From a virus (Duplodnaviria > Heunggongvirae > Uroviricota > Caudoviricetes), in IMG/VR virus record IMGVR_UViG_3300031998_000033, positions 36,685 through 100,684 of that record: a stretch of 64,000 nt of DNA; one strand, written 5' to 3'. The translations under genes were made by a program, and so were the position numbers. Of this stretch, positions 295-21,054 are shown one piece after another. Every line of letters starts with the position of its first letter. Within the stretch, counting starts at the first letter, position 1. The notes under the pieces are model-generated. The model was not told the origin of the DNA. It made no database searches and saw nothing but the letters and a program-made list of their open reading frames with translations.

Positions 295-3200
295 TCAATC
301 TGAAAGCTCGTCGCGGATGTCCATAAAGCATTTCACGACTGCGCTCAGCCCGGCGCTGAGGTTCGAGCTCAGCTCGTCAGACGGGAACGTGAGCGTGATG
401 GCGTCGCAGATTTTCGCCTTGACTTCGGCCGCCACTGAATCCCGAATCATGTCATGTATTATGCTCCCGAGGCCTACGACATATTCGCCGGCTCCGCGGA
501 ACTCAACGCCGACGGCATTATCCAAAACCTGCTTATAATCTGGATTTCCGTTATCTGCCGTCAACACCAGACGGTCTACGACGCCGGAGTGGACCGACAG
601 GTTCGGAATCTTGATATATCCTTCGGACGTATCAGTCGTCATGCCGGCTTCCAGCAATACGCTTGTCGTCGCATTGCTGAGCGCATCTATGTTATGAGCG
701 ACAATAGAGAACGTAGCCGGTGTTTCGCCGTTGTATACGTGAACGCTGGCGTTTTCCTCGTTATGTATAGGCAGATAGTTGCTAAGACTGGAATTTATTC
801 TTTCAACCTGAGTTTCTACCGCCTAAACGGCTGAAACCGTCGCATAAGAAGAAAGTCCGACTTCCAGGTCTTCAATTCTTCCGGAAAGCGCTGCGTCGGC
901 TGCGTCGATTTCGGCCGAACTTGAAGTCTCGGTCTTCTTGTAATAGCCGCTGAGATTAACGGATGCCGTCAAATCGGCCAACGCCGCGGATATCTGGTTC
1001 GACGACGAAGTCTCTGTCTTCTTGTAATAGCCGCTGAGATTTTCAAACGAAGGCAGGCTGTCGAACGCATTCTATATTTCTCCGGCCGACGAAGTCTCAG
1101 TCTTCTTGTAATAACCGCTGAGATCGACGGATGCCGTCAAATCGGCCAACGCCGCGGATATCTGGTTCGACGACGAGGTTTCCGCCTTAGAATAATAGCC
1201 GTCGGAAAGCGCCTAGGCTGTAACGAAATCGGAAAGCCTGCTTTCTACAGCTTCAAGATCGGCTACCGTCGCGTACCCGGACAAATCGACCGAAACATCG
1301 GCGAACGCATCAGACAACTGAGCCGCAGAAGACGTTTCTGTTTTCGGATAGAACAGGGACGAAATCCCGCGCAGATCATAAATACGCGCAACCGTATCGG
1401 GCTTAACTTCTTGGCCGGGCTTGGTGAATTCGTATACGCTGGCCTGATCGCCCGTCTTCGTCGTAATAACGAAACCGGCCGTACCATCTCCGAGTTCGTA
1501 GTTTTCGTTTTTAGAATCGAGCTTTTCAGCAAGTCCTTCAACAGACGCGACCTTGCTCCAATCGAGGCAAAACGTCTTATCGTCCGACAGCTCGATTCCG
1601 TCGCCGGACGCGCGGTATACGTCTATGAGGTCGGCGACGTCGCAGGATACGGTTTTTGTCCTGCCTTCCGCAAGCTCTATAACAAAAAACAGCGCTTTTG
1701 ACGACAGCCCTGAAGACACCTCGTATTCAGCTATGTACGCGTCCGAAAGCATTCCGTCGAACGCAAGCTTCGACACGTCCGCGGTAAGCGTCTGGCCGCC
1801 GAACTCAATATACAGGCTCTGTTCGGCATCGTCGTAGCCGAACGATTTCGCGCTGATCTCGTCGAGCCTGGACTGAAGCGTCCTGCCGTTGAAAGTTATC
1901 TCGCCGCCGTCTATCGTCGTCTCGCCGTTTTCGGTCTTGACTCCGAATACGCCGGAAACCTCGCCGCCTTCAAGAGAAAGCCGTTTTTCGACCGCGGCGG
2001 AAAGCGCGTCGTCGCCGGCTGTCCTGTCTTGAATTTCCTGGGCAAGCCTGGCGTCGAGATCGTCAAGGCGTCCGACGATCTCGCTCTGGGAAATGTCGAA
2101 TATCATGAACCGGCGGCCGCTGTCGACCTCCTGAAACCTGAAGGACGTGCACTTGCCGCATTCGACCAGCATCTCGGCGGGAGACCCGTCGTCGAAATAT
2201 ACGGGATCGCCCTGCGGGGTCATAAACCTAACATTGGCGAAACGTCCCTGTTCCGCGGCGCGCGGCTGGAGCATAAACAAAAACTCGCGGGACTTCGTCG
2301 ACCCGTCCGGCTTGTCAGGAATTTCGATTACGATGTCGCCTACGCCGTACTCCCAATATCCCGCTTTATCGTACCTGCGCCTGAACTCGAGGTTCGGATA
2401 TCCGCCGGATCCGCCTCCGACTGGCCTGATGTCGAACTTGTTGGATTCGAAATCGCCGTCCGTCGACTTTACGTAGACGAGCTCATATTGCGTATCATTG
2501 CAAGTCCTGGCCGATACGCTGGAATCAAAGCTGTATTCGTTAAGCCCGAGTATCTGCGCGAACTTGATGTCATAATCCGCGTCCGAATAGGCGATAAACT
2601 TGCATGAACCCGTCTCGGAATCATACCCTTCGACGTGTCCGACGATCTGATTCGTGTCAGGATATACCACGAAGGCATCCGGCATGTCGTAGTTGACAAG
2701 CCTGTTGACGGCGAATTCGCGGGCCTTGATAGGCATAGCCGGCCCGTCGTCCATCGTATAGATCTCGTATCTAGCCGCCCCGTCGGCGTATGCGGTTAAA
2801 GCCGAAGATATCGCCTCATCGGCGGCCTGACGGACAGAACGCTCATTGTCAAAAGCCGCGCTTAGGCCCGAAATCTCAGACGCGGTCTGCTCATCGGCGG
2901 CGCGGCGCGCGTTAGATTCCGATTCAAGCGCCACGTATACGCCAGCGGAAAGCGCCTCGACCGTGTCTTTAAGCCCGTCCAATACGCCAGAGAGGTCGGG
3001 GGGTATGGCCGATACGGAATCGCTGATCGCCTGAATGTCCGCGGCGCATTCGCCTATGGCGTCAAGCAGATCCTCATGAACGTACGTCGAAAGTTCCTAA
3101 AGCTAATCGCCAAACGTTCCAAGCTCTATCCTGCCGCCTTCCGACGTTTTAAGGACTGGATCTACAAGCGTCGCGCCGTAAATATCAACAGACGACAGCG

Positions 3201-3369
3201 TACCCTGGAAAATTTCAGCTTTTCCTTTAATACCGCCTGAAAAAGTACCCCAATATTCGTTTTCTTCGTTATAAAAACGGACTTTCTAAGTCGTAACACG
3301 ATCCTCAGGCTTAAACCCGACCGTTATCGTCTCTTTGACGCGGTTCTTCAAATCTGTATAAGTAGACAT
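295..3369 (-). CDS. Tail-fibre-like protein of about 1024 aa, read through 7 in-frame TAG codons
   Basis: ATG at 3367-3369 with an aggaa RBS; TGA at 295-297. Track ORFs 1213..2982 and 295..657 and the unlisted segments between are all one frame. They are separated only by TAG at 3286, 3103, 3097, 1213, 1072 and 823. Tandem repeats LSGYYKKTETSSSNQISAALADLTASV x3 (about 880-1210) and a fibre-like motif VDIYGATLVDPVLKT. Confidence 0.7.
880..1210 (-). repeat. Three near-identical ~87-nt coding tandem repeats inside the tail-fibre gene
   Basis: The unit gtctcggtcttcttgtaatagccgctgagat...gccaacgccgcggatatctggttcgacgacga recurs at about 920, 1010 and 1090. Confidence 0.8.
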
Positions 3370-3468
3370 TGCCGATGGTTTCCTTCTGGCTTGATTTATC
3401 AAATCTATTTACTTAAAAGGAACCGACAAACAAATATGCGCATTGAATGCGTATATAACGGCAATATA

Positions 3469-4083
3469 TCAGCTTTTTTTAGATTCGTCTATCAGTTTCG
3501 ACAACGGAAAATGAGCTTCGAACGCCGCAAGGCTGGCCTTTTGCTCGGGAGTCAATCCCGCTTCCATCTTTCTGGCTTCGGAAACAGCCATTTCCCAGTA
3601 TTTTCTAGAATATTCGTCTATATTTGGATCATACTGCCCGCCGCCGCCCATGCCGGCTATCAGCTATTCTATAGACGGCGTAACGCCCCATTCTCCCAGG
3701 CCGGGCGCATTTCCAATATGCCTGATCTCGGGACGAGCCGGCGCCTGCCTTACGACGCGCCCGGTCTTGAAGTCCAACACGGTGCCGTCATACGTCATAA
3801 ACAGGTCCGACCTTCCCGAGACAAACCCGGACTAAGGAACTTCGGCCCCGAGCATAGCGTCCGGCGCGGTATCCGGAACGGTAAGCCTCCTAGACGCGCC
3901 GTATTTTGCCTCGTACTCCGGCGTCCCGTACATCGGCTGATCCTGATTGGGGACGGTCAGGTTCTTTGCATCCTTGCCGGTATGGCTTATGTACCCGCCC
4001 GCCGCGGCCTTGTGCACGTTGTAGTTGCCGAAACGCCGCTCATTAAACGGATTGGCTTCCGGATAGATCGTCCTGCCCATCAT
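3469..4083 (-). CDS. Hypothetical protein of about 204 aa, read through 2 TAGs (3832-3834, 3664-3666)
   Basis: Track ORFs 3832..4083 and 3469..3651 are in one frame and joined only by TAG codons. Stop is TAA/TGA at 3469. Confidence 0.5.
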
Positions 4084-4750
4084 AGAAATGGAAATTCCTA
4101 GTTATCTCCAGCCATTCCAGCATTTCGGCGTCCATCGAAGACGGAGGAACATGCATGACCTGCCCGGCGACGAGGTCTTTTCCGTATTCCCGGACCCAGC
4201 TTCTCACGGTGTCGGGCACCTTAATCCCCCTGCCGTCAGCGACTTTGGCCAGCCCCGGTATCCATTTGCCGTTGAACAGCCTGAATACGAACACCGACGA
4301 GGCAATCTCGGAAACGTCGTCCATCTTGCCGACCAGGCCTTTGCGGTAGAGGTCATTGTACAGCAGGCCGGCGTAAGTGAGCAGCCCTCCGAACTTTTCG
4401 TCTTCGGTCTTGGACTCGTCCTTGAAGTCCAGAAGCCCGACGACTTCGTCCGGACTGCGCCCGTCCAGTTGCTTTAGGACCGACTTAACCGAGCTGGCGT
4501 CTATGAACGCCTGATCGAGGTCCGGAACATGCGCCGCCGCGATCTCCCTACAGCGCGCCGCCGACATGACGTACAGGAACGGGCATGCGAAGTCCACGCC
4601 CGGCCTCTGGATAAACTCCAGTACCGCATCGTCATCGTAAAGCACACCGAGGCCGACAAGCCGCCTAAGCAGCCTGGCGACTTCGCCATATGTCATGTCC
4701 CGCGTATAAGGTGTGTCTCTGCTTTCCGTATTTTCCATGTCTGTCCTCAC
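4043..4750 (-). CDS. Hypothetical protein, 235 aa, no TAG
   Basis: Intact ORF. 4-nt overlap with the upstream kinase-like gene suggests translational coupling. Confidence 0.5.
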   Translation of the reverse strand: MRTDMENTESRDTPYTRDMTYGEVARLLRRLVGLGVLYDDDAVLEFIQRPGVDFACPFLYVMSAARCREIAAAHVPDLDQAFIDASSVKSVLKQLDGRSPDEVVGLLDFKDESKTEDEKFGGLLTYAGLLYNDLYRKGLVGKMDDVSEIASSVFVFRLFNGKWIPGLAKVADGRGIKVPDTVRSWVREYGKDLVAGQVMHVPPSSMDAEMLEWLEITRNFHFYDGQDDLSGSQSV

Positions 4751-5325
4751 GTTACTATCTGGTGTCCGCCCATGCGCTCCACGACATGCTGGACGATTAT
4801 GTCGGCGCTCATCAGGTCGCCCTCGACCTCCTTGAAGTCGACGCCGTACGCCTTGAGCATTTCCTTGATCTGTATCCCGTACTTATCGGACTCCTCCTCC
4901 GTCTGCAGGCGCCCAACCGGGTTGTACTTCTTGACGCGCCTGAGGAAGTAGTTCAGGTTATCGTAGCGCGCGGATATCGTGTAGACCAACTGCTTGAGAG
5001 ACTCGTCTATCTCGGGATCCTTGTTGTAGAACGGGCTGAGGAACAGCGGCGAGTCGGTGACGATCACATCGACCTTTCCGGCGCAGCGACTCATCCTGTA
5101 GTACTGCTTCGCGAAGATGTATATCTGGTTGGAGAGCGCCTCGTTGTTCTTCTCCCAGACCTTGTCCTTCGCGAACTCTGTGACGAGCTCGCAGTTGACG
5201 CCCATCATCTTAAGCTTCGCGAATACATAGGCGGCAAGTGTAGATTTGCCTGAACCCGGAGGACCGAACAAATTTATCGAACAAACTTTTTTATCTATAT
5301 TAATACCAGCTTCAGCCATTGCCAT
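4747..5325 (-). CDS. P-loop NTPase or nucleotide-kinase-like protein (AAA_33-like)
   Basis: Walker A motif NLFGPPGSGKSTLAAY and Walker-B-like IVTDSP. 192 aa, no TAG. Confidence 0.55.
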   Translation of the reverse strand: MAMAEAGINIDKKVCSINLFGPPGSGKSTLAAYVFAKLKMMGVNCELVTEFAKDKVWEKNNEALSNQIYIFAKQYYRMSRCAGKVDVIVTDSPLFLSPFYNKDPEIDESLKQLVYTISARYDNLNYFLRRVKKYNPVGRLQTEEESDKYGIQIKEMLKAYGVDFKEVEGDLMSADIIVQHVVERMGGHQIVT

Positions 5326-5514
5326 TGACCTTCTCCACTATCATCTTATAGTCTGCGTATACTGCGCCGTCTTCATCCCATGTCGCGTCGACTACTGTTT
5401 TTCCGTTGGCGTCGACAACTTCGCATATCAGCGTCTTGGATCCGCCGCTACGCCTTGTCTTAAGCCTCCACGGCAGCGGGCTTATGGCGTGCTTCGGTAC
5501 TTTTGGCGTCCTCA

Positions 5515-5898
5515 TTACAGCGTAAACTCCCCGCCCTGGCCTTTAGTCGAATTAACTACAGCCACATCTCCGCCGGTCGCGATCTTAATGCCGGATATCT
5601 CGGATTTATAGCCGCCTACGAGTTCCTTCTCGATCTCGTCCTCCGTCAGCGTATACATGATCTGAGTAAACGGCACAGTTAAATTCTTTTCCAGACGCTT
5701 AACTGTAAACGGCGCGCATACGGGCTTTATAGCCACATGGACATCGCCGCGCATTGTCGGAACCATCATCACAAGGCGCGGATCCTCCAGATTGACGCCA
5801 ATAGGAGACCAACTAGATAAATTAGTCTACGGCATTTCCTTGCCTATGACTATCTCTCCACCATAAAGACGCATCAAAACTATCTTACTCTCTTCCAT
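5515..5898 (-). CDS. Hypothetical protein of about 127 aa with one in-frame TAG at 5827-5829
   Basis: ATG at 5896-5898 with an aggat RBS. Track ORF 5515..5772 is the C-terminal part. Confidence 0.45.
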
Positions 5899-5921
5899 GA
5901 TTATCCTTTCTTTTTAAAAAA

Positions 5922-7112
5922 TTATACTTTCTTATATCCGAACCGCAAAACCAACGTATTCATGAAGTTGACCGCGTATACGGAGACGAGAACACCGAAC
6001 AACGCCGCCTGCGAAAGAGATAATACCGACAGGACAAACGTCGACACGGCGAATGCGAACAGGCTTGCAAAACCCCATGCGCTGAGAAGCAGCCCATGGC
6101 AGAAGCTGAGTTCGGAACTGCCGTACCGCTCAAGCAGCACAGCCGGCGCCATCGCGAAACCGCATCCGTAACACGCGTTGACGATAATAAACGAAATCGG
6201 GGCGCACCGCGGATCGACCAGCACCAAAACAAGCGCGACTATCTCGAGGGCAAGGGCGCACAGCCATGAGTCAACGCGCCGACCCATATAGTCGCTTACG
6301 GCCGGAAACAGAAGGCGCCCGCCGCCGTTTGAAAGACCGCACAGCATCATTACGAATACAACAGCGCCTTCAGTAAGGCCGGACTCGGAAAGCATACCGG
6401 CGCATTGCCCGATTATCACCAGCCCCATGGCGATATTAAGGAACATGAACGTCCAGCACTGCAGAAAATAAGAATCCGAGACATACTTCAAAATCGAATA
6501 CGACTTGCCAGTCTGTTTTTTCAACGCGGCTTTCGCATACTTCGGCTTATCTATCATTATAGACCCTATAGACATCGAAAGCAAATAAACGCCCGCGAAA
6601 AAGAAAAACACGTTCTCTATCCCGAAATACGGAAACGCGTATTTGAACATATAAGAACAGATCGAAGAGCCGAGGCCGAAAGACACTATGGAAATCGCCA
6701 TTATAAGCGCCTTGTGGCTGGACTTGCCGAACCACAGCAGAAGGTTCTTGACCGGCGTGACGTACCCGACGCCTTCGGCAAGGCCACACAATACGCCGCA
6801 TCCGGCGTACAAAAGCCACACATTTTTAACATGCATCGCCAACGCCGATACGCAAAGACCGGCGAACAGCAGCGCTGTCGAAAGCCATGCCGCGCGCTTG
6901 ATGTTCTTCTCGACAAGCGAACCAAACGTGGCGGCTCCCATGCCAAGGAAGAAAATATTCAGGCAAAACGCGAACTGAACCGCGGCCTTAGACGCGCCGA
7001 GGCATCCCTGCGCCGGTCCAGAAAATAAGCTGAACGCGTACGTCCAGCCTATCGCCGTCGTCAGGAGAAAACACGGAATCAGCGACTTGCTCGCTTTATA
7101 TAAAAAAGACAT
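5922..7112 (-). CDS. MFS transporter (oxalate/formate-antiporter-like), about 396 aa, no TAG
   Basis: About 12 predicted transmembrane helices in a typical MFS layout. Likely start is MSFLYKASK at 7110-7112; the track ORF extends to 7190. TAA stop. Confidence 0.6.
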   Translation of the reverse strand: MSFLYKASKSLIPCFLLTTAIGWTYAFSLFSGPAQGCLGASKAAVQFAFCLNIFFLGMGAATFGSLVEKNIKRAAWLSTALLFAGLCVSALAMHVKNVWLLYAGCGVLCGLAEGVGYVTPVKNLLLWFGKSSHKALIMAISIVSFGLGSSICSYMFKYAFPYFGIENVFFFFAGVYLLSMSIGSIMIDKPKYAKAALKKQTGKSYSILKYVSDSYFLQCWTFMFLNIAMGLVIIGQCAGMLSESGLTEGAVVFVMMLCGLSNGGGRLLFPAVSDYMGRRVDSWLCALALEIVALVLVLVDPRCAPISFIIVNACYGCGFAMAPAVLLERYGSSELSFCHGLLLSAWGFASLFAFAVSTFVLSVLSLSQAALFGVLVSVYAVNFMNTLVLRFGYKKV

Positions 7113-7322
7113 CGTTATACCTTCTTCTTCAATGTTCCAAGAAAACACGCGGCGGCTTCGCCGGTAAGCTCGAACGGGCCAAACCCGCATACGCTGGCGA
7201 ACCTTGCCATGCGTTCCGCGGCGTCAACATCGGCGCCCCCGACCACAGCCTTCAAATACAGCTCTGGATCGGTGTTCGCCAAATCAGCGGCGTTCACTGT
7301 CTTGTCCCAGTCTACGTTCATA

Positions 7323-7748
7323 TCAAAGCTTCTTCAAGAAAAGTTCCTTGGCGTACGCGGACGCAAACTTCCGATCGGCGTTTTTTGGCAGCGCTTTCAT
7401 AACGGCGCCTATATTCGCGGCGCCCGAAGCCACGGCGTCGTCCACAAGCCTGCGCGTATCGTCTTCGGAGAGAAGAGCCGGGACAAAAGCCGAAAGGCAT
7501 TCCAATTCCTTTTTCTCCTTTTCCGCCAGTTCGGCCCGTCCGGCGTTTTCGAACTGTTCAATGGCTTCGCGCCGCATCTTAACAGCCTTGGCCGCACATG
7601 CCGCGACCGCGTCGTCGGTAACGGGCTTTCCTTCGTTCACAGTCTTGTTCTTTACGTCTGAGAGAAGGCAGCGCAGGCAATTCCGCTTCACGTCGTCGTG
7701 CGCAATCATGGCCTTCTTTATTTCTTCCTGCAGTTTCTCGTATATCAT
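7323..7748 (-). CDS. GatB/YqeY-domain protein, 141 aa
   Basis: Full-length resemblance to YqeY-family proteins (KRNCLRCLLSDVKNKTVNEGKP...AELAEKEKKELECLSAFVP). No TAG. Confidence 0.6.
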   Translation of the reverse strand: MIYEKLQEEIKKAMIAHDDVKRNCLRCLLSDVKNKTVNEGKPVTDDAVAACAAKAVKMRREAIEQFENAGRAELAEKEKKELECLSAFVPALLSEDDTRRLVDDAVASGAANIGAVMKALPKNADRKFASAYAKELFLKKL

Positions 7749-7785
7749 AGAGTATGAATTTACGTAGTGGTTCTTGTTAAAACAA

Positions 7786-8823
7786 TTAAATGATTTTATA
7801 GCCGGGTTCTAGCACGGGCCATTCTTTTACTTCTGTCTCATAATAATAATCTATCCATTTAGAACCGTCCCAGCATACCGTGTCGCTTATCGACATTCGC
7901 TCCCCGTCCGGACCATGCGCGACGCAACGAAGGTAGCATGCATCCCCAGGCTTCAGTCCGCCGGCGGCTTCGCGCTCGACCGCAAACTCTTCGACACTGG
8001 TAAACGCATGCGCCGGCTCGTATATCTTATCGGGCGTAAGACCTATGCGCGGAAGCACGTTCACCTTGCTCTCATTCAGATTCCTCGCCCTGACATAGTA
8101 TGAATAGCCTGAATGCCTGTCGGAAACATATCCGCGATCGACATAGCCCATATTTCTGAAGAACCGGCCGTCTCCGAGAGAAACATAGTCAGAACATCCA
8201 AGTTTCATGTCATTATAATAAAAACCGAACCCAACGCGGCCGTCGGCGCCAAATGTAAAACCGCATTCGGATTTGAAATGCGCCCTGTTGCGAAACTGGC
8301 CGCAGCCGCACAGAAATTTCGCGTTATTCCCGTCTAAGGTCCTGAGCGGATCAAAAAGCGCCGGATCCGCCTTCGCATCGTCGTTGAAGCCAAGCTTGAC
8401 GTATATGCTGTCAGACCGCTTGTTGACTTCGATAAGCCATGCGCCGCCGTATGTTTTCTCCATTTCAGCTATGAGATCCGCGACGCACAGCATGAACTGA
8501 GAGTGTTCGTAGTTCTTTTTCCACGCCGGAAGCGAAAGGAAAAACACGCCGAGATTATGCGAGACTTTCAAGCCGGACACCAACCGCGCACACTGGAACA
8601 CCGAATGCGGGTTTCCGAGCACATCGTAATAATGCAGTACACCTATCAGGCCTGGAGACTCGAACTTCTCCGAAACGCGCTTGCATATGGCGTCGAGATC
8701 CGAATGCCGTTTTTCAGTATGCGGAACATGGCACCAGACTTCGTCGAAGTTCTTGTCATAATTCAACAGCAAATCCGCCTTGAATTCAATGGGATTCTTT
8801 GAAAAATATATAGAATTACGCAT
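7786..8823 (-). CDS. Hypothetical protein, 345 aa, no TAG
   Basis: Intact ORF. Confidence 0.45.
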   Translation of the reverse strand: MRNSIYFSKNPIEFKADLLLNYDKNFDEVWCHVPHTEKRHSDLDAICKRVSEKFESPGLIGVLHYYDVLGNPHSVFQCARLVSGLKVSHNLGVFFLSLPAWKKNYEHSQFMLCVADLIAEMEKTYGGAWLIEVNKRSDSIYVKLGFNDDAKADPALFDPLRTLDGNNAKFLCGCGQFRNRAHFKSECGFTFGADGRVGFGFYYNDMKLGCSDYVSLGDGRFFRNMGYVDRGYVSDRHSGYSYYVRARNLNESKVNVLPRIGLTPDKIYEPAHAFTSVEEFAVEREAAGGLKPGDACYLRCVAHGPDGERMSISDTVCWDGSKWIDYYYETEVKEWPVLEPGYKII

Positions 8824-9256
8824 TTTCGTCAGACTGGTTTTCTTTAGCGTAGGATTTCTCGACTTCCGACAAATACCTATCGATTACGTCTGGGTCGAAG
8901 TTTGAAATAGTCTTGTCCTCTTTCTTCCACATAAGAAGAATCGCTTCTACAACCTCGCACGCGTTTTCGCCTTCTTCCATATGCAGGAAATGATTAACTA
9001 TATTGAATTCGAACAGCTTGCTTTTCACTGTACCGTCCTTTGCGACGGCGCATAGAAAATTAATAGGCTGAAACCCATAGAACGACTTCTTGTCGCAGGC
9101 TAGAGACGCGTCGCGGTGGAGGATCTGCCCGTCTACAACATACCTCGCATACTCGGCGCTCTTCATTTCGCGGCGCTTATCCGCAGTAAAAAGATCTAAA
9201 GCAAGACGTCTTTTCGCCGTATTCAAAAGACGCGTAATGTTTTTTCTATTAAGCAT
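8816..9256 (-). CDS. Hypothetical protein, 146 aa
   Basis: Intact ORF. First gene of the leftward block that diverges from the terminase operon. Confidence 0.45.
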   Translation of the reverse strand: MLNRKNITRLLNTAKRRLALDLFTADKRREMKSAEYARYVVDGQILHRDASLACDKKSFYGFQPINFLCAVAKDGTVKSKLFEFNIVNHFLHMEEGENACEVVEAILLMWKKEDKTISNFDPDVIDRYLSEVEKSYAKENQSDENA

Positions 9257-9389: not shown

Positions 9390-9773
9390 ATGAATATGGA
9401 TATGAATATGAATACGAATCAAGACAGATAGCTTTCGCATATTAAAAAACCCGGCGAAATAGACAGGATTTCCAAAGAAGAATTCGAATACCGCATTTCG
9501 GAAATCGCGAAATGCAAACGCGACATCAATTATTTCGCATCTAAATATTTTCGCATAATCAGCTTGGATTAGGGTCTTTAGATCATAAACCCATATCCTA
9601 AGCAGAAAGAACTTCTTGATTTTTTTGTACATGAAAACCGCGCGATAATAATAGCGTCGAGGCAGACCGGCAAATGTGTTTGCAAAAATACAAAAATCAA
9701 AATTAAAAATAAAAAGACAGGCGAAATAGAAGAATTGACAATTGAAGATTTCTATAAACGGTTTAAATTATAA
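9390..9773 (+). CDS. terL: Large terminase fragment A: N-extein ending in Walker-A SRQTGK, fused to a 32-aa N-intein (IntN1). Three in-frame TAGs.
   Basis: Frame-3 translation gives ...YFASKYFRIISLD(TAG)GL(TAG)IINPYPKQKELLDFFVHENRAIIIASRQTGK|CVCKNTKIKIKNKKTGEIEELTIEDFYKRFKL, then TAA at 9771. The extein resembles T4 gp17 (YFKI..SLDHGL...YQRDLLK.MHENRF...LSRQLGK). Missed by the ORF track. Confidence 0.7.
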
Positions 9774-11274
9774 GTAAATAAATCTAGCATTACGTTAGAA
9801 AGGAAAATACGTTTATGAAATTTTTCACACATTGTTGCCATTGTGGAAATAAATTTGAAACTAAATCGAAAAAAGCCAAATACTGTAGCTGGCTATGTAA
9901 AAAAATTGAAATTACCAAAGCACAATTTCCGAATGGATCAGATTATGTTGAATGCAAAATATGCGGTCTGCGCGGCAAGCAGATCATATAGCATATAACA
10001 AAAGTCCATAAGATGGAAATTAATGAATACTGCAAAAAATTCAATGTTAAATATGAAGATTTATAGACAAAAAGTTTAAGTATTCAAATGTCGACTAATA
10101 CAAAAAAAGCCTGCGTAGAAGGTCGCTGCGGTTTTCAAAAAGGCGGAGACAATCCGTCGAAAAAAGAAGAATGCCGGAACGGCCGGAACAGCGTATGGTC
10201 GATAAACTTCAAGGGATATGACGGTCTTTCCGATGAAGAGAAAACAGCCAGAATAAAGGCGCTGAGCGAACGAGCGCAGGCGTCACGCGACAGCAGACAC
10301 AACAACGCGACCAAGATCGACTACTACTTGACACGAGGATATTCCGAACAAGACGCGAAAAAAATGCTGCGGGAAAGACAGCGGACGTTCACGCTTGAAA
10401 AATGCGTGGCTAAACACGGAGAGGAAGAAGGCAGCAGGATATACGAGGACAGGCAGCGACGGTGGCAGAACACAATGAAGTCGAAGCCAGTTGAGGAAAT
10501 AGAACGCATCAACAAGGCTAAATTATTTAGCAACCGTAGAGGTTTTTCTATAATCAGTTAGGAATTGTTCGAAAATATAGTTAAACAATTACATGGTCGG
10601 TATAAAAAAATACATTATGCAACTATTACGCCGGGGCGTATTGACGGCGAATACATGGTATATAACAAACATACTAAAACTACATATTTTTTGGACTTTT
10701 ATATAGAAGACAACAACAAGGTAATAGAGTTCGACGGCGATTACTGGCATGGCGAAAAGCGCGGAAACCAGAAACGCGATGCGGAACGCGAAGCGAATCT
10801 CCGTAAGCTGGGCTACGCCAATATCCTGCGCGTCAAGGAACGAGACTACAAAGCCGATCCGGACGCGGTCACGGCGCAGTGCGTCGAATTCATAACGAAA
10901 GGCGATTTATGAACCTCTCTGATACTGTATCCCGTAAATTCGTAGATTCGGCAGACGCGTCGGATTATGAGATCCTGACCGACTCCGGCTGGTAGGATTG
11001 CGTCGCCGTACACAAGACGGTCAAATACGAGATATGGCGCGTCTAGACTGAACGCCATTCGCTGGAGTGCGCCGACGACCATATAGTATTCCGCGAAGAC
11101 ATGAGCCAGGCATTCGTCAAAGACCTTGTACCGGGCGACGCGATAATGACCGAGGACGGCGTTGAAAAAGTAATCTCAATGGAACGGACGGGGTAGTTCG
11201 AGAACATGTTCGACGTCGAGCTGGCCGACGACACAGACCATAAGTACTACACTAACGGGATACTGTCGCATAAT
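9675..11274 (+). mobile_element. Split intein 1 in the terminase P-loop: IntN1 9675..9770, nested homing endonuclease gene, IntC1 10912..11274
   Basis: IntN block A CVCKNT..I. IntC is about 121 aa with block B LECADDHIVF and blocks F/G FDVELADDTDHKYYTNGILSHN, followed by +1 Thr. Splicing would give SRQTGK-TTSYTIF, matching T4 gp17 SRQLGKTT. Confidence 0.65.
9815..10912 (+). CDS. Free-standing homing endonuclease (N-terminal zinc ribbon plus C-terminal Vsr/DUF559-like nuclease), about 365 aa, 3 in-frame TAGs
   Basis: ATG at 9815 with an aggaaaa RBS. Cys clusters CCHCGNKF...CSWLCKK and CKICG. C-terminal motif EFDGDYWHGEKRGNQKRDAEREANLRKLGYANILRV. TAGs at codons 59, 84 and at 10559. TGA at 10910-10912 overlaps the next ATG (ATGA). 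Confidence 0.6.
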
Positions 11275-11634
11275 ACGACGTCCTACACAATATTCGCGCT
11301 CTGGACGCTGATATTCAATCCAGAACAGCGGATAATGCTTCTTGCGAACAAAGCCGATACGGCGATCGAAATTCTTTCGCGAATCCAGCTTGCGTATGAA
11401 TATATTCCTACATGGTTGAAACCGGCTGTCATTACGTGGAACAAGAGCGAAATAATTTTTTCAAACAAATCCGTCATAAAAGGCTTCGCCACGGCATCGG
11501 ACGCGGCAAGAGGCTATAGCGCGAACTGCGTCGCCGGCGACACCAAGATAACAGTGCGGTTTAAAATACTGCCGTTTATGAAATTTAAAATACCAATATC
11601 CTGGCTGAGGTTCCTCGGCAAAGATAGTAAATAA
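10909..11634 (+). CDS. terL: Large terminase fragment B: Met + IntC1 + middle extein + IntN2
   Basis: Middle extein TTSYTIFALWTLIFNPEQRIMLLANKADTAIEILSRIQLAYEYIPTWLKPAVITWNKSEIIFSNKSVIKGFATASDAARGYSAN aligns to T4 gp17 residues following Walker A. It is followed by IntN2 CVAGDTKITVRFKILPFMKFKIPISWLRFLGKDSK and TAA. Confidence 0.7.
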
Positions 11635-13389
11635 ATATATGACAAAAGAAATAACAATAGAACAGCTTAAAAAAGATCTAGCGGACCTGCTTGAAACGTC
11701 GCCGGACAACTACGCGAGATTTCTGAAATCCGAAAAGTACAAAGACAAGTATGAAGGATACATCGACAAGATAAACGAACTGACGCCGCTTCTGCAGGAT
11801 CCGTATTATAAGCTGAAGACGAAAATATACTGGATACTGCACGACATACGCGATTTTCCTAGATGCCATTGCGAAGGATGCCATAATGTGATCGCACGTA
11901 ATGTCGTAAGCGCCGTCGTAGGATACAGCGGCACCGGCCTTTTCTGTTCGAACAGCTGCGCGCAGAAAAGCCAGATGCATAAAGACAAAATGCAAAAGCT
12001 GGCAAGGGAAAAATACGGAAGCGACACCGTCGTCGGATCGCCGGCCGTTCGCATGAAAATAAAAGAGGTGTTCAAACAGAGAGTCGCAGAGAATCCGAAC
12101 TTCTACGTCGGGCGCGCGGAGAAAAGCCGAAAAACATGCAGGATGAGGTACGGCGTGGACAATCCGCAGCAGGACGAGGAGATCCGCAGCCGGACTATGA
12201 CAACGTTCAAAAAGACAATGCTTAGAAAATACGGATATAACAATGCCCTGGACGTACCGGAGATCAGACGGAAAATACGGCAGACCAACATCAAAAAATA
12301 CGGCGTCGAATCCGTATTCCAGAATTCGGAAATGATGCAGACTGTACAGGAGCGCGCTAAATCTCCGGAATCGAAAGCCAAGCGGAAACAGACATTAGAA
12401 GAAAAATACGGCGTCGGCAATTCATTTCAGACGCAGCAGTCTAAAGACGCGGCGATAACGTCCATAAAGACAAAATGCTACAACAGGCTTCTGACAACAA
12501 GCGTTATTCCTAATTTTTCCCTTGAAGACTACTTGAACATAAAGGACTCGGGCAAAAACATAAAAACCGTACTGTCGTGGCACTGCGCCGAATGCGGCAG
12601 AGATTTCGACGCCGTGCCTTTCGAGCATTGCTATGGCAGATCCATAGCAAGGTGCATGCACTGCCATCCCATAATAAACACCGGCTATTCCGTTATGGAA
12701 AAAACGGTGCTCGACTTCGTAAAGGAGCTTCTTCCCGGCGAACGAATAATGGAAAACGACAAGACTATGCTTGTAAATCCCGAAACAGGCAGGAATCTAG
12801 AGCTGGACATCTTCATACCGTCGCTCATGAAGGCCATAGAGTTCCAGGGAACATACTAGCACAGCTTCGAAAAACAGAAGAAGTATGACGCGATAAAAAT
12901 AGAAGAATGCCGGAACAACGGAATAGACCTTATGCAGCTAGACGAAAGCATGTGGACAGACGACAGGGACGCCGCGAAAGCCGCGATATCTGATTTCATA
13001 TTCAACTTAGAAGACCAAACGCTATGAAGCTTTCAGAATCGATAAAACGCCTGTATAAGAAGATAACAAGCATACGCGGCGCAGTGGAGGTGGAAACCGA
13101 CCGCGGATGGGAACCTGTCGAATACGTCATGCAGACGCCGGCGCAGCAGATATACGAGATAACGACCGAGAATGGCCTGGTTTTGAAATGTTCCGCCGAC
13201 CATATCCTGATAGACGCCGAAGGCAATGAAATGCTCGCGAAGGATTCGGCCGGCAGAAAAGTAAAAACCGCCGGGGGCAACGCCGAAATAGTACGGGTGA
13301 GAACGACGGACGAAAAGGCGGAACTATACGATCTTTCGCTCGGCGGAGACCGCCATGCGTACTATGCCGGCGGAATATTGTCGCACAAC
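11527..13389 (+). mobile_element. Split intein 2 at the terminase Walker-B site: IntN2 11527..11631, nested homing endonuclease gene, IntC2 13027..13389
   Basis: IntN block A CVAGDTKIT. IntC has block B LKCSADHILI and blocks F/G LYDLSLGGDRHAYYAGGILSHN, followed by +1 Cys. Splicing would give ARGYSAN-CVICDEFGFV, matching the gp17 Walker-B region. Confidence 0.65.
11639..13027 (+). CDS. Free-standing homing endonuclease 2 (zinc finger, KYG repeat modules, C-terminal Vsr/DUF559-like domain), about 462 aa, 1 in-frame TAG
   Basis: Frame-2 ORF between the two halves of intein 2. Motifs HCEGCHN...CSNSC, repeated KYGVDNPQQDEEIR / KYGYNNALDVPEIR / KYGVESVFQNSEMM modules, and ELDIFIPSLMKAIEFQGTY. TAG at 12857. 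TGA at 13025 overlaps the ATG at 13024. Confidence 0.55.
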
Positions 13390-14745
13390 TGCGTCATATG
13401 CGACGAATTCGGTTTTGTCGCCAATAATATAGCCAACAAGGTCTTCGAGTCCATCTACCCCGTAATCTCTTCGTCGAAGAAGTCGAAATTCATAATCGTG
13501 TCGACCCCCAACGGCGCCGATCCGAACAACCTCTACTACAACCTGTGGCAGCAGGCCAACCAGAAGAGCTACGATAAGAACAAAGAAGGCTGGAAACCGT
13601 TCAGAATCGACTGGTGGGACGTGCCCGGCCGCGACCAGAAGTGGAAAGAGATGACCATCGCGTCGATCGGCGAAAGGCGGTTCGCGCAGGAGTTCGGCAA
13701 TGAGTTCCTGGCCGGCAAACAGAGCCTCAAGCTCATCCCGGACGACATAATAGAGAAATTCAGGATGGAAGCGTCGCGGATGAAAGCATAGGGGCAGGCG
13801 CCGGTCGAGCAGCAGATCCTTTCTGAAAACGAGCAGATGGTGTACAAGTTCAGGATGTGGGCGGAGTTCGACCCGAAAAGAACGTATGCCGCGGCGGCAG
13901 ATATCGCGGAAGGCGTCGGAAAAGACAGCTCCGTATTATATATATTCGACGTCACCGACCTTAGCCGCATAATAATGTGCGCGGCGTTCTCGTCCGATAC
14001 CGTGTCTCTTGTAGAATTCGCGTACGTATGCTCGAAAATCCTTCCGCTTTACGGATCGCCGCCGCTGTTCGCGGAAAGGAACGGCGTTTCAGCCGGTATG
14101 CTGGATTCGTTACGTATAACCTATAAATACCCCAATATAGCGAGGGAATCCAAAAACGGAGAAGCCGGCATCTACTCGCATGTAACAATAAAAGGCCGGG
14201 CTTGCCTATGGGCGCGCGACATGATGACGACGATGGGATTCGGTTTCATTCTTCCCGACCAGGCCCTGCTCGACGAAATGGGCACTTTCGTTAAGAAAGA
14301 AACAAGCGGGCGACATACCGTATTCCAGGCCGCTTCGGGCTCGCATGACGACCACATCATGGCGCTGGTATGGCTATGCTGGGGACTAAATAAGGAAATT
14401 GTCGACAAATATTTCATCGTAGTGAAGACATTCGAATCCCAGCTCGGCGAACTTCTGCCGCAGATGCTCATGCCGATGACAGCATACAACGGCGCGCAGA
14501 TAAAACAGATATCCTAGGATCCCATATACCGCCGGTTCGTGGAAATAAAAAATGAATGTCTCTCGTCCTACAACGCGGCGATGAACGCCGAACAGAACGC
14601 GCAGGAAGACATATTCCAATGGAAAAAAAACCAGCCTCAGTATTTCGACGACGAATGGATAAGTCCGTCATGGAATGAAAACGAAAATCTACAACAGCGG
14701 TCAGTCAATCCAAATAACATCATGCCGTCATTTTTCATAAGCTGA
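13024..14745 (+). CDS. terL: Large terminase fragment C: Met + IntC2 + C-extein (Walker B, ATPase C-motif, nuclease domain). Two in-frame TAGs.
   Basis: C-extein CVICDEFGFVANNIANKVFESIYPVISSSKKSKFIIVSTPNGADPNNLYYNLWQQA matches T4 gp17 MIYIDECAFIPNF...QPVISSGRRSKIIITTTPNGLNHFYDIW. TAGs at 13789 and 14515 are in frame. TGA at 14743. Confidence 0.75.
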
Positions 14746-15249: not shown

Positions 15250-15951
15250 TTACGCCCGCGTTTTTTGTCGGTTGACGTCTTGCAATGTCGCTATGGTCGC
15301 GGACAAAGGCATCATATGCATGTTCATTACGGCCCGGCTGCCGCATATGCACGGCCATGACGTAGTCTTGACGTTGGTCGCCAATATATATCTTCCAACG
15401 GGCATCTCAAGGTCCTTGGGCACGTATCCGAACAAGCTCCATCGGCTGTCGTATCTGTACCGCAGCTCTATGCCTAAACCCATTCCGCCGGGCTGATCAT
15501 CCCCCATAACGCATACATTGCATTCGAACTGAGACGGATCCAGCCGCGCGCACAAAAGCCGCGTTCCCGCTTCGGTTTTTGTTTTTCCGTAATGGATATT
15601 GTCTATCCCGACCGCATCGAACCCATCGAAGTAAAACCATTTTTTTACGGCGGTTGGGCGCTCGTCGAGAAACAAGAATACCTGCTGAAGGCTTCGTTTC
15701 GTAAAGTCGTCTTCGCTTTCAGCCGTCCCGACTAGACACCGCAGCAGCGAGTCCTGCGGAATAAATATCGCCATGAGCGCGCCGAGCTCCTTTAACTCGG
15801 ACGCCGTATTGAATGCGCGTTCTCCGTATGCGTCTTCCGGCGTATATTCAGGGGAAGGAATCCTGCGCATATTGTCTATCAGCGTGTACCGGTCTGCCTC
15901 TTGATACCTGTACGTCCGCGCCCGATCGCGTTCTAGTTCTTGGTCTATCAT
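15250..15951 (-). CDS. Hypothetical protein, 233 aa, no TAG
   Basis: Intact ORF directly downstream of the ClpP-like gene. Confidence 0.45.
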   Translation of the reverse strand: MIDQELERDRARTYRYQEADRYTLIDNMRRIPSPEYTPEDAYGERAFNTASELKELGALMAIFIPQDSLLRCLVGTAESEDDFTKRSLQQVFLFLDERPTAVKKWFYFDGFDAVGIDNIHYGKTKTEAGTRLLCARLDPSQFECNVCVMGDDQPGGMGLGIELRYRYDSRWSLFGYVPKDLEMPVGRYILATNVKTTSWPCICGSRAVMNMHMMPLSATIATLQDVNRQKTRA

Positions 15952-16023: not shown

Positions 16024-16611
16024 TCATGTTATCTCGTCGCAGATTCCGTATTTCAGACATTGCTCCGCGTCGAGGTACAGCTTGTCATCCTTCAGCATCT
16101 CGGCGAGCTTCTTCTTCGGGATTTTCGTATGCTCCGAATAAATGCGAAGGATCTTGTTAAAATGCTTTATGTTGTTCTCCGCTTCGCGCTTAAGCTGCTC
16201 GAAAGTCGAAAATTCTGCCCCGGCGCATCCCAGATGCAGCAGATGGTCGGAATACCTTGACATCGTCCTGTAATCACCGTACGCCGCCAATATTGATCCC
16301 GCCGAATATGCGACGCCGATTACGTGCGTATGTACCGATATGCCTTTGCTTTTCGCGACATCAAGCACGGAAAGCAGCCCAAACAATTCATAAGCATCTC
16401 CGCCGCACGAATTGATGTATATGTGTATGACCGGATCCTTGAACGCTTCCATCTGGTTAACCAGCGACGTGACGGCGTGTATCACCTCTGTCGAAATCGT
16501 AGAATCGAATTCACCGAGTATATACACATTGCCGTCGTCGGTTACGAAATTCCGCGACTTCACATTCTGGTTTCGCATAGGTGTATCTGTCTTTTTGTTT
16601 TCTGTCTTCAT
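16024..16611 (-). CDS. ClpP-family serine protease (a possible prohead protease)
   Basis: IHIYINSCGGDAYELFGLLSVL and VIGVAYSAGSILAAYG align to ClpP IYLYINSPGG and CMGQAASMGAFLLTAG (catalytic Ser). A His and an Asp follow with ClpP-like spacing. Confidence 0.65.
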   Translation of the reverse strand: MKTENKKTDTPMRNQNVKSRNFVTDDGNVYILGEFDSTISTEVIHAVTSLVNQMEAFKDPVIHIYINSCGGDAYELFGLLSVLDVAKSKGISVHTHVIGVAYSAGSILAAYGDYRTMSRYSDHLLHLGCAGAEFSTFEQLKREAENNIKHFNKILRIYSEHTKIPKKKLAEMLKDDKLYLDAEQCLKYGICDEIT

Positions 16612-16616
16612 GGCTT

Positions 16617-16892
16617 TTACTTTATAAATTTTATAAAACCAGACTTCTGTTTCGGAAGTCTCCTAAGCAACCATAAATATAATGTCTTGTCGTCAAGGCG
16701 TTCAAGCGTGACATAATTGTCCATCACTATCTGTCTTACGCGCGGATCGGGACTCATTGTCATATATTTGCGGCAGATGAATCCGGCGAAATCCTTGAAA
16801 TTTGGATCTTCTATATGACGACGCCAGGTTTCTTCGGACTTCGTCACAAGGATATTGTTCATTGCGTCAAATAGCATAGTCGATCTTGCCAT
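16617..16892 (-). CDS. Hypothetical small protein, 91 aa
   Basis: Track ORF in a compact minus-strand operon. Confidence 0.35.
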   Translation of the reverse strand: MARSTMLFDAMNNILVTKSEETWRRHIEDPNFKDFAGFICRKYMTMSPDPRVRQIVMDNYVTLERLDDKTLYLWLLRRLPKQKSGFIKFIK

Positions 16893-17250
16893 ACGTCAAT
16901 CCTATATAGACATTATATAAATCTATGACTGCCATTCTGTCTTCGTCGTTTTTTGCCGCGGCTTTAATATACGCCTCTTCCAGGGACGCGGACTGTTCAC
17001 CCGGTTTTGACAACACCGCTTTTTCGAGATCGTCCAATATCGAATTTTTTACTTCTGCCGCCCATTCAGGCGGAGGTTCGACGCCGTCTATGTCGGCCGC
17101 TATGCGAAGATACGCCTGCATTTCTGGAATTTCGAAATCCGGATCTTTTTTTATTTCGGCGTCTTTTTCCTGCTGCGACCTGGCGTCTTCCGATATCTTC
17201 TGCAGCTCTTCTGCGTCTACAGCAGAGGCATTGCCGTTAAGAATCTTCAT
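16867..17250 (-). CDS. Hypothetical acidic protein, 127 aa
   Basis: Track ORF. Confidence 0.35.
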   Translation of the reverse strand: MKILNGNASAVDAEELQKISEDARSQQEKDAEIKKDPDFEIPEMQAYLRIAADIDGVEPPPEWAAEVKNSILDDLEKAVLSKPGEQSASLEEAYIKAAAKNDEDRMAVIDLYNVYIGLTYGKIDYAI

Positions 17251-17653
17251 CTTCGGAACTCCTTATTCCGATCAGATCTTTTATGACGGCGGCTTTGCCT
17301 GTCTTGTTTTGAACAACTGCCTTCAGATAGCCTTCTTCCGTGAGGTCTGTCTGGTCCCATCCCATGATATTCGCGAATCCAGCCAGCCGCGCTTTTTCGT
17401 CCGGTACATTTATAATCGCGTTTTCCATCAAACCGGATCCATATTCCTTTGGCGACGAACCTTTCGGCATTTCATGCCTGTATTCGCCGGCGGCGACCGC
17501 CTTTATATATTCTGCATCGGGGTCAAGCTCCTCCATATACGAAAAACCGTTATCCAGCTTATCCATTAAGTCGCCGGCATATTCTGACTCAAGCTCCGGC
17601 GGAAGATCTAGATCTTCGAAAGAGAGTTCACGGTCAAGCCAGTTTTTGTCCAT
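17237..17653 (-). CDS. Hypothetical acidic protein, 138 aa
   Basis: Track ORF adjacent to the clamp loader; a gp62-like role cannot be shown from sequence. Confidence 0.35.
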   Translation of the reverse strand: MDKNWLDRELSFEDLDLPPELESEYAGDLMDKLDNGFSYMEELDPDAEYIKAVAAGEYRHEMPKGSSPKEYGSGLMENAIINVPDEKARLAGFANIMGWDQTDLTEEGYLKAVVQNKTGKAAVIKDLIGIRSSEDEDS

Positions 17654-17654
17654 G

Positions 17655-18603: not shown

Positions 18604-18714
18604 TTTATATTATTCGTCCTCAGGACCGAATCCGATACGGTTCCTTTTTTTTCTTCATGTTTATATTGAAATGCATCAGCTTTAGCTCTGTAAGTGTCAA
18701 AGCCTCAGACTGGG

Positions 18715-18778
18715 ACGCGCCGGTATTGGAGTTGTGCTATTCCAATATGTATCGGCGCCGGCGGTCTTCTTTTTTTAG
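18715..18778 (+). ncRNA. Candidate structured RNA or terminator element in a 410-bp intergenic region
   Basis: Nested hairpins: cgccgg[tattgga-gttgtgcta-tccaata]tgtatcggcgccggcg, followed by a T7 run. Confidence 0.3.
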
Positions 18779-19015
18779 TCACTTACACACTCACTGCTTA
18801 CACAGACATAGCTTGCGCACCGGTTAAACTCCATAAGCTTGTTCTTGATAGCCTCTAACTTATCAGGGCCCTAAATGCACAACTTAAGCTCGCACTCAGG
18901 ATCGATATCCAGATGCTGATTATCCAGTTCTGTCAATTCTACGTTTTCATGAACGATCTCTCCTGTGAGATCCCATGCCGCGCGAAGGAAATCATTATAT
19001 TGGATATTGTCCACG

Positions 19016-19976: not shown

Positions 19977-19984
19977 TACGAATA

Positions 19985-20018
19985 AAAGAAAAAAGGCACG
20001 GAATATCCGTGCCCTTTC
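19985..20018 (-). terminator. Rho-independent terminator
   Basis: Hairpin ggcacgg-aatat-ccgtgcc with a T-run on the minus strand, just after the TGA of the 20037 gene. Confidence 0.55.
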
Positions 20019-20036
20019 ACAATCAAGCTGATCCGT

Positions 20037-21046: not shown

Positions 21047-21054
21047 TGATGTTA

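Follow-up and report, generated by a model that had tools for sequence, protein, structure and literature searches.

The phages known to read TAG as glutamine include members of the Lak, crAss-like, Garnet, Amethyst, Agate and other clades, for which a model has been proposed with early genes that can be read in the standard code and with recoding of structural and lysis genes, while replication genes are "variably" recoded, mostly so in the Lak phages (Borges et al., bioRxiv 10.1101/2021.08.26.457843). A code-switch interpretation that includes recoded replication genes is already published in the same study, and a concentration threshold for the suppressor tRNA has been discussed (PMC10879173). 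Jumbo phages with genetic code 15 have also been reported from surveys of animal guts and rumen, with Portal_GP20 broken into fragments under the standard code (Anim Microbiome 2026, PMC13037316). Here, we describe the distribution of in-frame TAG codons in a stretch of 64,000 nucleotides from a phage of the Caudoviricetes (IMG/VR record IMGVR_UViG_3300031998_000033, positions 36,685 to 100,684), referred to below as the window, with emphasis on a block of genes at 26340-39698 that lacks TAG, apart from an inserted endonuclease gene, and that remains nearly devoid of TAG in related phages.

Like the phages of Borges et al., the window phage uses TAG for glutamine, has TAG in only some of its genes, and combines recoded structural genes with a standard-compatible subset. 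It differs from them in that it represents a T4-like lineage (with gp20, gp55, gp13, a gp44-type clamp loader and a tail tube protein), and in that its standard-compatible set centers on an operon for NAD+ salvage and accessory functions, and not on replication genes or an integrase. It shares jumbo size, TAG recoding and a portal gene that is fragmented by the standard code with the phages of the gut and rumen surveys, but the window phage also offers a conserved TAG-free module and a graded TAG density among gene classes that can be measured. The NARP2 pathway for NAD+ reconstitution consists of NAMPT plus NMNAT/Nudix (PMC13464706; bioRxiv 10.1101/2024.02.11.579819). An NMNAT-Nudix fusion and a predicted phosphoribosyltransferase of the NAPRTase family are likewise encoded in one operon in the window, but here the transferase is assigned by its family match, which leaves either nicotinamide or nicotinate as the putative substrate. 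The NARP2-like pathway is a passenger of the TAG finding, not the finding itself.

The phage and its reading of TAG

The window is 100% identical to the region at ~112.5-176.5 kb of the ENA metagenome contig ERZ27257204:k141_6112942 (277,570 bp), and the identical phage is present in the Logan run SRR9008936. The gene set is that of a T4-like myovirus, with a gp20 portal protein, a family B polymerase (PolB), a gp44-type clamp loader and RNase H/FEN (identified with Pfam), as well as a gp13-type neck protein, a tail tube protein (phrog_45), a gp55-like late sigma factor and a large terminase (both PHROGs). With a size of at least 277 kb, the window phage qualifies as a T4-like jumbo phage, and the metagenomes in which it occurs are of the gut or rumen type. 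Its distance from cultured phages is large: the portal protein is ~24% identical to the portal proteins of T4-like Cronobacter and Enterobacter phages, and a megablast search with the window gave no match. Metagenomic relatives, drawn from ENA, Logan and JGI, number in the hundreds, with some contigs of 125-450 kb; scans of IMG/VR with the portal and with an NMNAT alignment returned only one distant relative each. The equivalent regions of the relatives (designated L008, L012 and so forth) were reached via the portal protein, the NMNAT-Nudix protein and a 345-amino acid protein encoded at 7786-8823, and TAG codons in the relatives were counted solely inside regions with homology support between different genomes. 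A greedy selection of read-through open reading frames (ORFs) in the relatives was dropped, since spurious ORFs inflated the TAG counts.

Sequence homology extends across the TAG codons of several genes. The Portal_T4 match in Pfam spans residues 71-508 of the portal protein (45278-47122, minus strand), across its TAG codons, and homology across TAG codons was also seen in PolB, the clamp loader, RNase H and the terminase. All four TAG sites in the portal gene correspond to glutamine in relatives with 94-95% identity, and one of these sites corresponds to glutamine in 113 of 120 homologs. In homology-validated alignments with 60-97% identity, the position opposite TAG was occupied by TAG in 32% and by glutamine in 30% of the cases; glutamine accounts for 44% of the non-TAG residues at these positions, as compared to a background of 2.9%. 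Homology-validated in-frame TAG codons were found in every relative examined, showing that the recoding is clade-wide. The ORFs of at least 100 amino acids sum to 167.9 kb with TAG read-through, as compared to 119.6 kb with the standard code, but reading through either of the other stop codons gives a similar gain in this sequence of ~50% GC, and homology is therefore the stronger evidence for recoding. Judged from the alignments, TAG encodes glutamine (code 15) in the window phage.

TAG distribution and the block at 26340-39698

The gene list combines the output of a self-trained caller with ORFs read in the standard code and with the precomputed calls for the source contig. The window contains 67 genes with 19,572 codons and 80 in-frame TAG codons, and 38 of the genes (8,850 codons) have no TAG. 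An earlier note on this DNA, made from the sequence alone, had proposed a partition of the genes into TAG-free and TAG-rich sets, and the distribution is indeed non-random with regard to gene length: a length-aware permutation gave a mean of 25 TAG-free genes, as compared to the 38 observed (p about 5e-6), not one of 200,000 permutations gave as many as the observed 8,850 TAG-free codons, and the p-value was 0.0017 under a null model weighted by glutamine. In addition, the TAG-free genes tend to be located next to one another (runs test, p = 0.004). All complete genes terminate with TAA (32 genes) or TGA (34 genes) and none with TAG, which means that the 38 TAG-free genes give an identical product in both codes.

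Could this pattern result from chance or from a gene-calling artefact, such that gene lengths, wrong frames or wrong start codons create apparently TAG-free genes? Some TAG codons near the 5' ends do depend on the choice of start codon, for example codon 4 of a ClpP-like gene, codon 16 of the gene at 39765-40508 and codon 11 of the gene at 41641-42111. However, the permutation, glutamine-weighted and runs tests all reject chance, and the density of off-frame TAG is equal in TAG-free and TAG-containing genes (19.5 and 20.9 per 1000 codons, respectively), so base composition is not the cause. Moreover, the genes in the block at 26340-39698 tile tightly in independent standard-code calls, and the pattern recurs in independent relatives. 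We therefore reject this explanation as having next to no probability.

The block at 26340-39698 on the minus strand consists of 19 co-oriented genes and one inserted endonuclease gene. It encodes an S2P homolog (Peptidase_M50, 26340-27011), an NMNAT-Nudix fusion protein (29588-30787), an SPFH protein (31593-32369), two signal-peptide-like proteins (32480-33859), a protein without a named function (35371-36714) and a NAPRTase-family enzyme (37846-39069), matched by Pfam NAPRTase and by phrog_448, "nicotinamide phosphoribosyl transferase", followed by the last gene at 39069-39698; many small ORFs are also present. The functions of the S2P, NMNAT-Nudix and SPFH proteins are based on Pfam. The block contains no TAG in 3,839 codons, an outcome with a probability of 3e-9 at the TAG rate of the other genes and of 8e-6 after normalization for glutamine. 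Among the orthologs of the block genes in up to 17 relatives, with the HNH endonuclease insert set aside, five TAG codons were counted in about 19,600 codons (TAG/(TAG+Gln) 0.0097; the five codons were not checked one by one), as compared to 60 TAG codons in 11,838 codons from other orthologs (TAG/(TAG+Gln) 0.140; Fisher p = 2e-16), the latter comprising gp13, HNH, PolB, portal, gp55, 47135-52205, 53259-55286, the tail tube and others. The block is thus about 20-fold depleted in TAG across the relatives. The block genes are about 36-79% identical to those in L008 and L012, in which PolB, gp13 and the portal protein show 87-95% identity, and with this faster divergence slow evolution does not explain the absence of TAG. 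In the window as well as in the relatives, a subset of genes can be read in the standard code and contains the recoded stop codon less often than expected by chance, and the comparisons provide good evidence that purifying selection keeps TAG out of 26340-39698. More than 100 relatives share the NMNAT-Nudix fusion.

In the relatives, inserted endonuclease genes are the sole TAG-rich members of the block (L012, L014, L020). In the window, the insert is a gene for an HNH homing endonuclease on the minus strand (36856-37849 including a GTAAATA motif of its own at 37843-37849) with 33% GC; the previous identification of this gene is borne out by PHROGs (phrog_655, 1e-28), and three in-frame TAG codons were counted, as had been reported. 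Its orthologs have five TAG codons in L020, where the copy has two GTAAATA motifs, and six TAG codons in L032. A vault-like gene with an MVP_shoulder domain (PF11978) is located inside the TAG-free block of L012 (6994-9564), L014 (6679-9213) and L020 (6930-9512); it encodes 844-860 amino acids, is TAG-free and has a faint match to Vault_3, and no copy was found in the 64-kb window. The flanks of the window (L102, corresponding to window positions of about -9705 to 0, and L002 1-4642, corresponding to 64001-68642) contain genes for glycosyltransferases, for a UDP-galactopyranose mutase and an anaerobic ribonucleotide reductase (NrdD), both broken up in standard-code calls, and for an NAD synthase (NadE), which is a single piece in the standard-code call. 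With NadE in the flank, genes for NAD+ metabolism extend beyond the main block.

The second block to which a TAG-free state had been assigned, 4043-9256 on the minus strand, is less strict. It contains genes at 4043-4750, 4747-5325 (AAA_28 kinase-like, Pfam), 5312-5515, 5515-5898, 5922-7190 (MFS transporter, Pfam), 7323-7748 (YqeY, PF09424; phrog_1460, "tRNA amidotransferase"), 7786-8823 (the 345-amino acid protein) and 8816-9256. There is one TAG in its 1,675 codons, located at codon 24 (5827-5829) of the gene at 5515-5898, and this TAG is genuine: the N-terminus of the protein, including the TAG site, aligns to orthologs at 42-58% identity. The orthologs of this block contain four TAG codons in L099, two of which are located in the MFS gene opposite glutamine in the window, and none in L101. 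The block at 4043-9256 is thus TAG-poor, about five-fold below the density in the other orthologs, rather than TAG-free. Most of the other blocks listed in the earlier note were TAG-free, as stated there. Of the functions given there, Pfam supports the kinase-like protein, MFS, YqeY, NMNAT plus Nudix, SPFH and NAPRTase/PncB, and precomputed Pfam matches support ClpP and S2P (Peptidase_M50).

TAG-free genes without conserved avoidance

Several TAG-free genes are located outside these two blocks, including six that had not been listed before: 16867-17250, 17237-17653, 25070-25405, 47135-47875, the tail tube gene at 55304-55957 and 57986-58642. The gene at 15250-15951 (minus strand) is TAG-free, and its ortholog in L101 has one TAG. 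The gene for the ClpP-like protease (16024-16578, minus strand) had also been called TAG-free, which applies to the gene as read from an internal start at 16578; a TAG is present upstream of that start and is not conserved in L101. The protein matches PHROGs for head maturation proteases, which suggests that the gene may be a late gene.

For a number of these genes, the relatives carry TAG codons. The gene at 21989-24073 (minus strand) encodes 694 amino acids, has 63% GC and 86% GC at third codon positions (GC3), far above its neighbors, and is preceded by a sigma-70-like site (TTGACG-18-TAAAAT). A partial ortholog in L014 (18080-18709) has one TAG and two GTAAATA motifs, from which it follows that the absence of TAG is not conserved; the promoter-like class and the code class of this gene possibly change together. 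The divergent pair 25070-25405 (minus strand) and 25448-26284 (plus strand) is TAG-free, with each gene directly behind a GTAAATA motif, but the orthologs of 25448-26284 have four TAG codons in L014, one in L020 and four in L035. The gene at 47135-47875 (minus strand), located next to the portal gene, encodes an acidic protein, and 48593-49810, 49810-51321 and 51324-52205 form an operon on the plus strand behind GTAAATA at 48561. These four genes are TAG-free in the window, while their L008 orthologs have two, four, two and one TAG codons, respectively. Membrane proteins were among the products listed for the TAG-free blocks in the earlier note, but the products of 48593-52205 do not resemble such proteins. 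The tail tube gene (55304-55957, plus strand; phrog_45) is TAG-free, and its ortholog in L008 has one TAG. The proposal that the TAG-free genes represent an early class is thus supported for 26340-39698, where avoidance is conserved, but not for 21989-24073, 25448-26284, 47135-52205 and the tail tube, given the TAG codons in the relatives. For 21989-24073, 25070-26284, 47135-52205 and the tail tube, a lineage-specific history, such as recombination, is more likely than a conserved constraint.

These observations bear on a mosaic history, in which TAG-free genes would have been imported recently from standard-code bacteria or phages and would not yet have accumulated TAG, with no regulation involved. 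Base composition is uneven in the window, with the high GC and GC3 values of 21989-24073 and with 54-58% GC in 48593-52205, as compared to about 50% overall. It is only in the window genome that 21989-24073, 25448-26284, 47135-52205 and the tail tube gene lack TAG, and these genes are 39-76% identical to L008, as compared to 87-92% for the flanking gp55 and portal genes. The identity values of the block genes also vary by relative, with PncB being 90% identical to L014 and 58% identical to L012, and the MFS, SPFH, S2P and NAPRTase families are common in bacteria. On the other hand, at least 17 relatives, all of which use TAG as a sense codon, have orthologs of the block at 26340-39698, and almost no TAG is found in these orthologs despite a divergence to 33-90% identity. 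Block ORFs without a Pfam match have homologs here solely from recoded relatives, and no TAG stop codon occurs among the 38 TAG-free genes. Fresh imports from standard-code genomes would be expected to include some TAG stops. Mosaic acquisition is probably right for the TAG-free genes that are specific to the window, but it cannot explain the conserved avoidance in the NAD+ block, and as an account of the pattern as a whole we regard it as unlikely.

The tail tube is also relevant for the idea that TAG is kept from genes that are needed whatever the efficiency of suppression, for example genes for abundant virion and assembly proteins, or genes needed in a carrier state or in an infection aborted under host defense. 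In the window genome, the tail tube gene, the gene for the acidic protein next to the portal and the ClpP-like gene are TAG-free, and NAD+ salvage would, by our own reasoning from bioRxiv 10.1101/2024.02.11.579819, be most needed under a defense that depletes NAD+. Yet the tail tube gene and the portal-adjacent gene carry TAG codons in relatives, no major capsid gene that would bear on abundance was identified in the window, and for the NAD+ block such robustness overlaps with a model based on timing. We find it very unlikely that this is the explanation.

Recoded genes, promoter-like motifs and timing

TAG codons were found in the replication genes, the gp55-like late sigma factor, the terminase, the portal and the fiber-like genes, as the earlier note states. 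The replication run at 16867-20026 (minus strand) has the small TAG-free genes 16867-17250 and 17237-17653 at one end, followed by the clamp loader (17655-18602; one TAG, opposite glutamine in L099 and L101), a gene with one TAG (18775-19014) and RNase H/FEN (19016-20026; three TAG codons). Also on the minus strand are PolB (42181-45108), with a TAG at 44752-44754, the portal gene with its four TAG codons, and the gp55-like gene (47862-48446), with a TAG at 48348-48350 and GTAAATA at 48476. The large terminase gene is in pieces on the plus strand, 10879-11634 with three and 13024-14745 with two TAG codons. Interleaved with these pieces are free-standing homing endonuclease genes on the same strand, 9815-10912 (DUF559/MTES_1575; three TAG codons) and 11639-13027 (DUF7487; one TAG), both behind GTAAATA. 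Each terminase piece opens with an intein-like segment that ends in "ILSHN", followed by T or C; the terminase of L101 is uninterrupted (484 amino acids). A possible ORF for 127 amino acids (9390-9773), with three TAG codons, is located behind GTAAATA at 9384. The fiber-like genes at 58756-63999 (minus strand) contain four, eight, five and nine TAG codons and have the highest TAG density, and genes of the same class at the other end of the window contain six (295-3402) and two (3469-4083).

The number of TAG codons per 1000 codons is 0 in the block at 26340-39698, 0.6 in 4043-9256, 3.0 in replication genes (TAG/(TAG+Gln) 0.11), 5.9 in head, neck and packaging genes (0.13), 6.3 in homing endonuclease genes, 9.4 in tail and fiber genes (0.22) and 10.1 in a family of paralogs with the motif "KKTYTKKQI". 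This gradient is consistent with a threshold model for suppression. Glutamine (CAG or CAA) is scarce in the TAG-free and TAG-poor blocks, 2.0% of the codons in 26340-39698 and 1.7% in 4043-9256; in head and tail genes, glutamine plus TAG amounts to about 4.2-4.4%. The members of the "KKTYTKKQI" family (20037-21038, 21052-21903, 25070-25405, 39765-40508, 40898-41413 and 41641-42111) have a common N-terminal motif, approximately "KKTYTKKQIxEAIAYWKKQLAKGNYRKVNE", unrelated C-termini and mostly a position behind GTAAATA. The N-terminal half of the protein from the TAG-free gene 49810-51321 is paralogous to that of 20037-21038, which has two TAG codons. In 40898-41413 (minus strand), the penultimate codon is TAG (TAG ATA TAA), which is either a sense codon or a leftover TAG stop backed by TAA. 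Near the tail tube gene, the 675-amino acid protein encoded upstream (53259-55286, plus strand) has a cysteine/glycine run, "CEGGCACGGNCGGDCGGNCGGG", and the 383-amino acid protein encoded downstream (56004-57155, plus strand) has a long acidic repeat rich in aspartate, serine and threonine.

In phage T4, early and middle genes are transcribed from sigma-70 promoters and late genes from TATAAATA promoters, which are read with gp55, and the homing endonuclease genes of T4 have late promoters of their own. In the window, TATAAATA occurs in six copies, only one of which is upstream of a start codon, and a late promoter of the T4 type was not recovered. The motif GTAAATA was found in 21 copies, as compared to 7.45 expected, a number that was not reached in any of 100 shuffled sequences. 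Fifteen copies are located at most 60 nucleotides upstream of a start codon in the sense orientation. The 21 sites include 3406, 9774, 11627, 24982, 25409, 25436, 37843, 39725, 41446, 42131, 42149, 48476, 48561, 52198, 55967 and 59445. The motif is located ahead of the fiber gene 295-3402, gp13, 52205, 56004, 58756, three genes of the "KKTYTKKQI" family, all three homing endonuclease genes, the gp55 homolog and three TAG-free units (25070, 25448 and 48593). Among the genes with GTAAATA, 11 contain TAG and three are TAG-free, while the numbers are 18 and 35 for the genes without the motif (Fisher p = 0.005). The single copy in 26340-39698 precedes the HNH endonuclease gene, which is the only gene with TAG in the block, and in the block of L012, L014, L020 and L021, the motif is found solely ahead of TAG-containing HNH inserts. 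At gp55, 48593, 52205, 56004 and gp13, GTAAATA is present at orthologous positions in relatives. Code class is thus linked to a promoter-like class, but the suggestion of an early class is not supported as a general rule, in that 48593-52205 and 25070-26284 share GTAAATA with fiber and neck genes. The window phage resembles T4 in having a gp55 homolog and a TAAATA core within an AT-rich motif near structural and homing endonuclease genes. The differences are that the motif is GTAAATA and not TATAAATA, that it precedes the gp55 homolog too, and that T4 uses the standard code, whereas the window phage adds a translational layer of TAG to the transcriptional program.

A second motif, GTAAAAT, is not enriched overall in the window (16 copies as compared to 10.7 expected; eight of 100 shuffled sequences reach 16). 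Six copies on the minus strand (24104, 27783, 29137, 32403, 39124 and 58743) are located 18-101 nucleotides upstream of TAG-free genes (21989, 27346, 28785, 31593, 37846 and 57986), one of them with TTGACG 18 nucleotides upstream and another after a terminator-like hairpin. In the relatives, a G directly precedes 22 of the 38 TAAAAT copies on the coding strand of the block, and some of the GTAAAAT copies there may be stop/start junctions.

The window and flanks from -9.7 kb to +4.6 kb were searched for a tRNA with the anticodon CUA using ARAGORN with and without introns and Rfam at the gathering threshold, and none was found; since ~200 kb of the 277-kb contig were outside the search, this absence is uninformative. 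The relative loci scanned with ARAGORN, also with introns allowed, gave no tRNA(CUA) either. Matches obtained with a lowered threshold in ARAGORN contained introns as long as 1.7 kb and were dismissed as spurious. No release factor 2 or aminoacyl-tRNA synthetase was identified in the 64-kb window. Two more distant relatives have clusters of tRNA genes, in both cases several kb upstream of the gene for NMNAT-Nudix. The cluster in L025 (6531-6779) contains tRNA genes for Lys, Gln(UUG) and Leu, with no CUA anticodon in the visible part. The cluster in L042 (154-1220) contains three Ser, Val, Gln(CUG) and Gln(UUG) tRNA genes, with no CUA in the visible part; it starts 154 nucleotides from the fetched edge, and further tRNA genes are possible beyond. 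The YqeY gene (7323-7748) is TAG-free and is kept in L099, L101, L025, L027 and L033. The YqeY domain is a tRNA-Gln affinity module of GatB and of the Deinococcus GlnRS (PMC1865053), and by this analogy YqeY is a candidate only for an accessory factor in the switch of TAG to glutamine.

On balance, we think it probable, though by no means assured, that 26340-39698, and less strictly 4043-9256, is kept translatable in the standard code in order to act before suppression is established, and that the recoded genes need a glutamine suppressor that is active by the time PolB, the clamp loader and RNase H are synthesized. The TAG-free block genes would then be translated at the start of infection, before the glutamine-suppressor tRNA suffices to outcompete release factor 1. 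If each TAG is read with an efficiency s, a protein encoded with n TAG codons would be obtained in a yield approximately proportional to s to the power n, such that the products of one-TAG genes, such as PolB, would rise soon after suppression begins, while fiber genes with 8-9 TAG codons would need full suppression. The timing, the suppressor tRNA and the s-to-the-n behavior are what we infer from the TAG pattern. The argument in the earlier note that read-through must precede DNA replication is logically sound, as genuine TAG codons are present in PolB, the clamp loader and RNase H, and several of these codons align with glutamine in relatives. A broader scheme, in which the TAG count is a graded translational timer on a T4-type cascade, with a conserved TAG-free operon for counter-defense and NAD+ salvage in the host code, replication genes with one TAG next and fibers last, in which homing endonucleases adopt the "late" motif and code even upon insertion into the early operon, and in which YqeY could help to charge or amidate the suppressor tRNA, appears distinctly improbable to us.

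Several observations weigh against the reading that the block acts before suppression is established. Avoidance is not absolute, given the five TAG codons among the block orthologs, and the block at 4043-9256 is leaky, with one TAG in the window and four in L099. A bias of TAG toward the 5' ends of genes, as expected for TAG codons that abort translation early, was not significant (mean relative position 0.425; Kolmogorov-Smirnov p = 0.06, and p = 0.13 in comparison with glutamine codons), and a suppressor tRNA was found neither in the window nor in the flanks of about 14 kb or the fetched relative loci. The density gradient could result from differing selective constraint instead of timing. 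The function and timing of GTAAATA as a late-type promoter are assumed, and the motif is also located ahead of the sigma factor gene and of three TAG-free units. Six copies directly adjoin the start codon (1-7 nucleotides away), which would give no room for a Shine-Dalgarno leader if the motif were a -10-type element. A scan for sigma-70-type sites in 21-41 kb gave 19 sites, as compared to 21 expected, with no enrichment in the block, and an "early" promoter class is therefore not demonstrated for the block.

With these reservations, the new features are a T4-like clade in which TAG is read as glutamine clade-wide, a conserved TAG-free module that is a NARP2-like operon for NAD+ salvage and accessory functions, and the association with GTAAATA, with constraint shown for part of the TAG-free set only. 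The code-switch hypothesis lacks a tractable test case, and the lineage of the window phage has T4-type landmarks and many sequenced relatives, such that each gene can be assessed for both its transcriptional class and its code class. The relatives separate genes that are kept TAG-free by selection from those that are TAG-free by happenstance, which a single genome cannot do. For this clade, annotation needs code 15, and the genes of the conserved block are expressible unchanged in a standard-code host.

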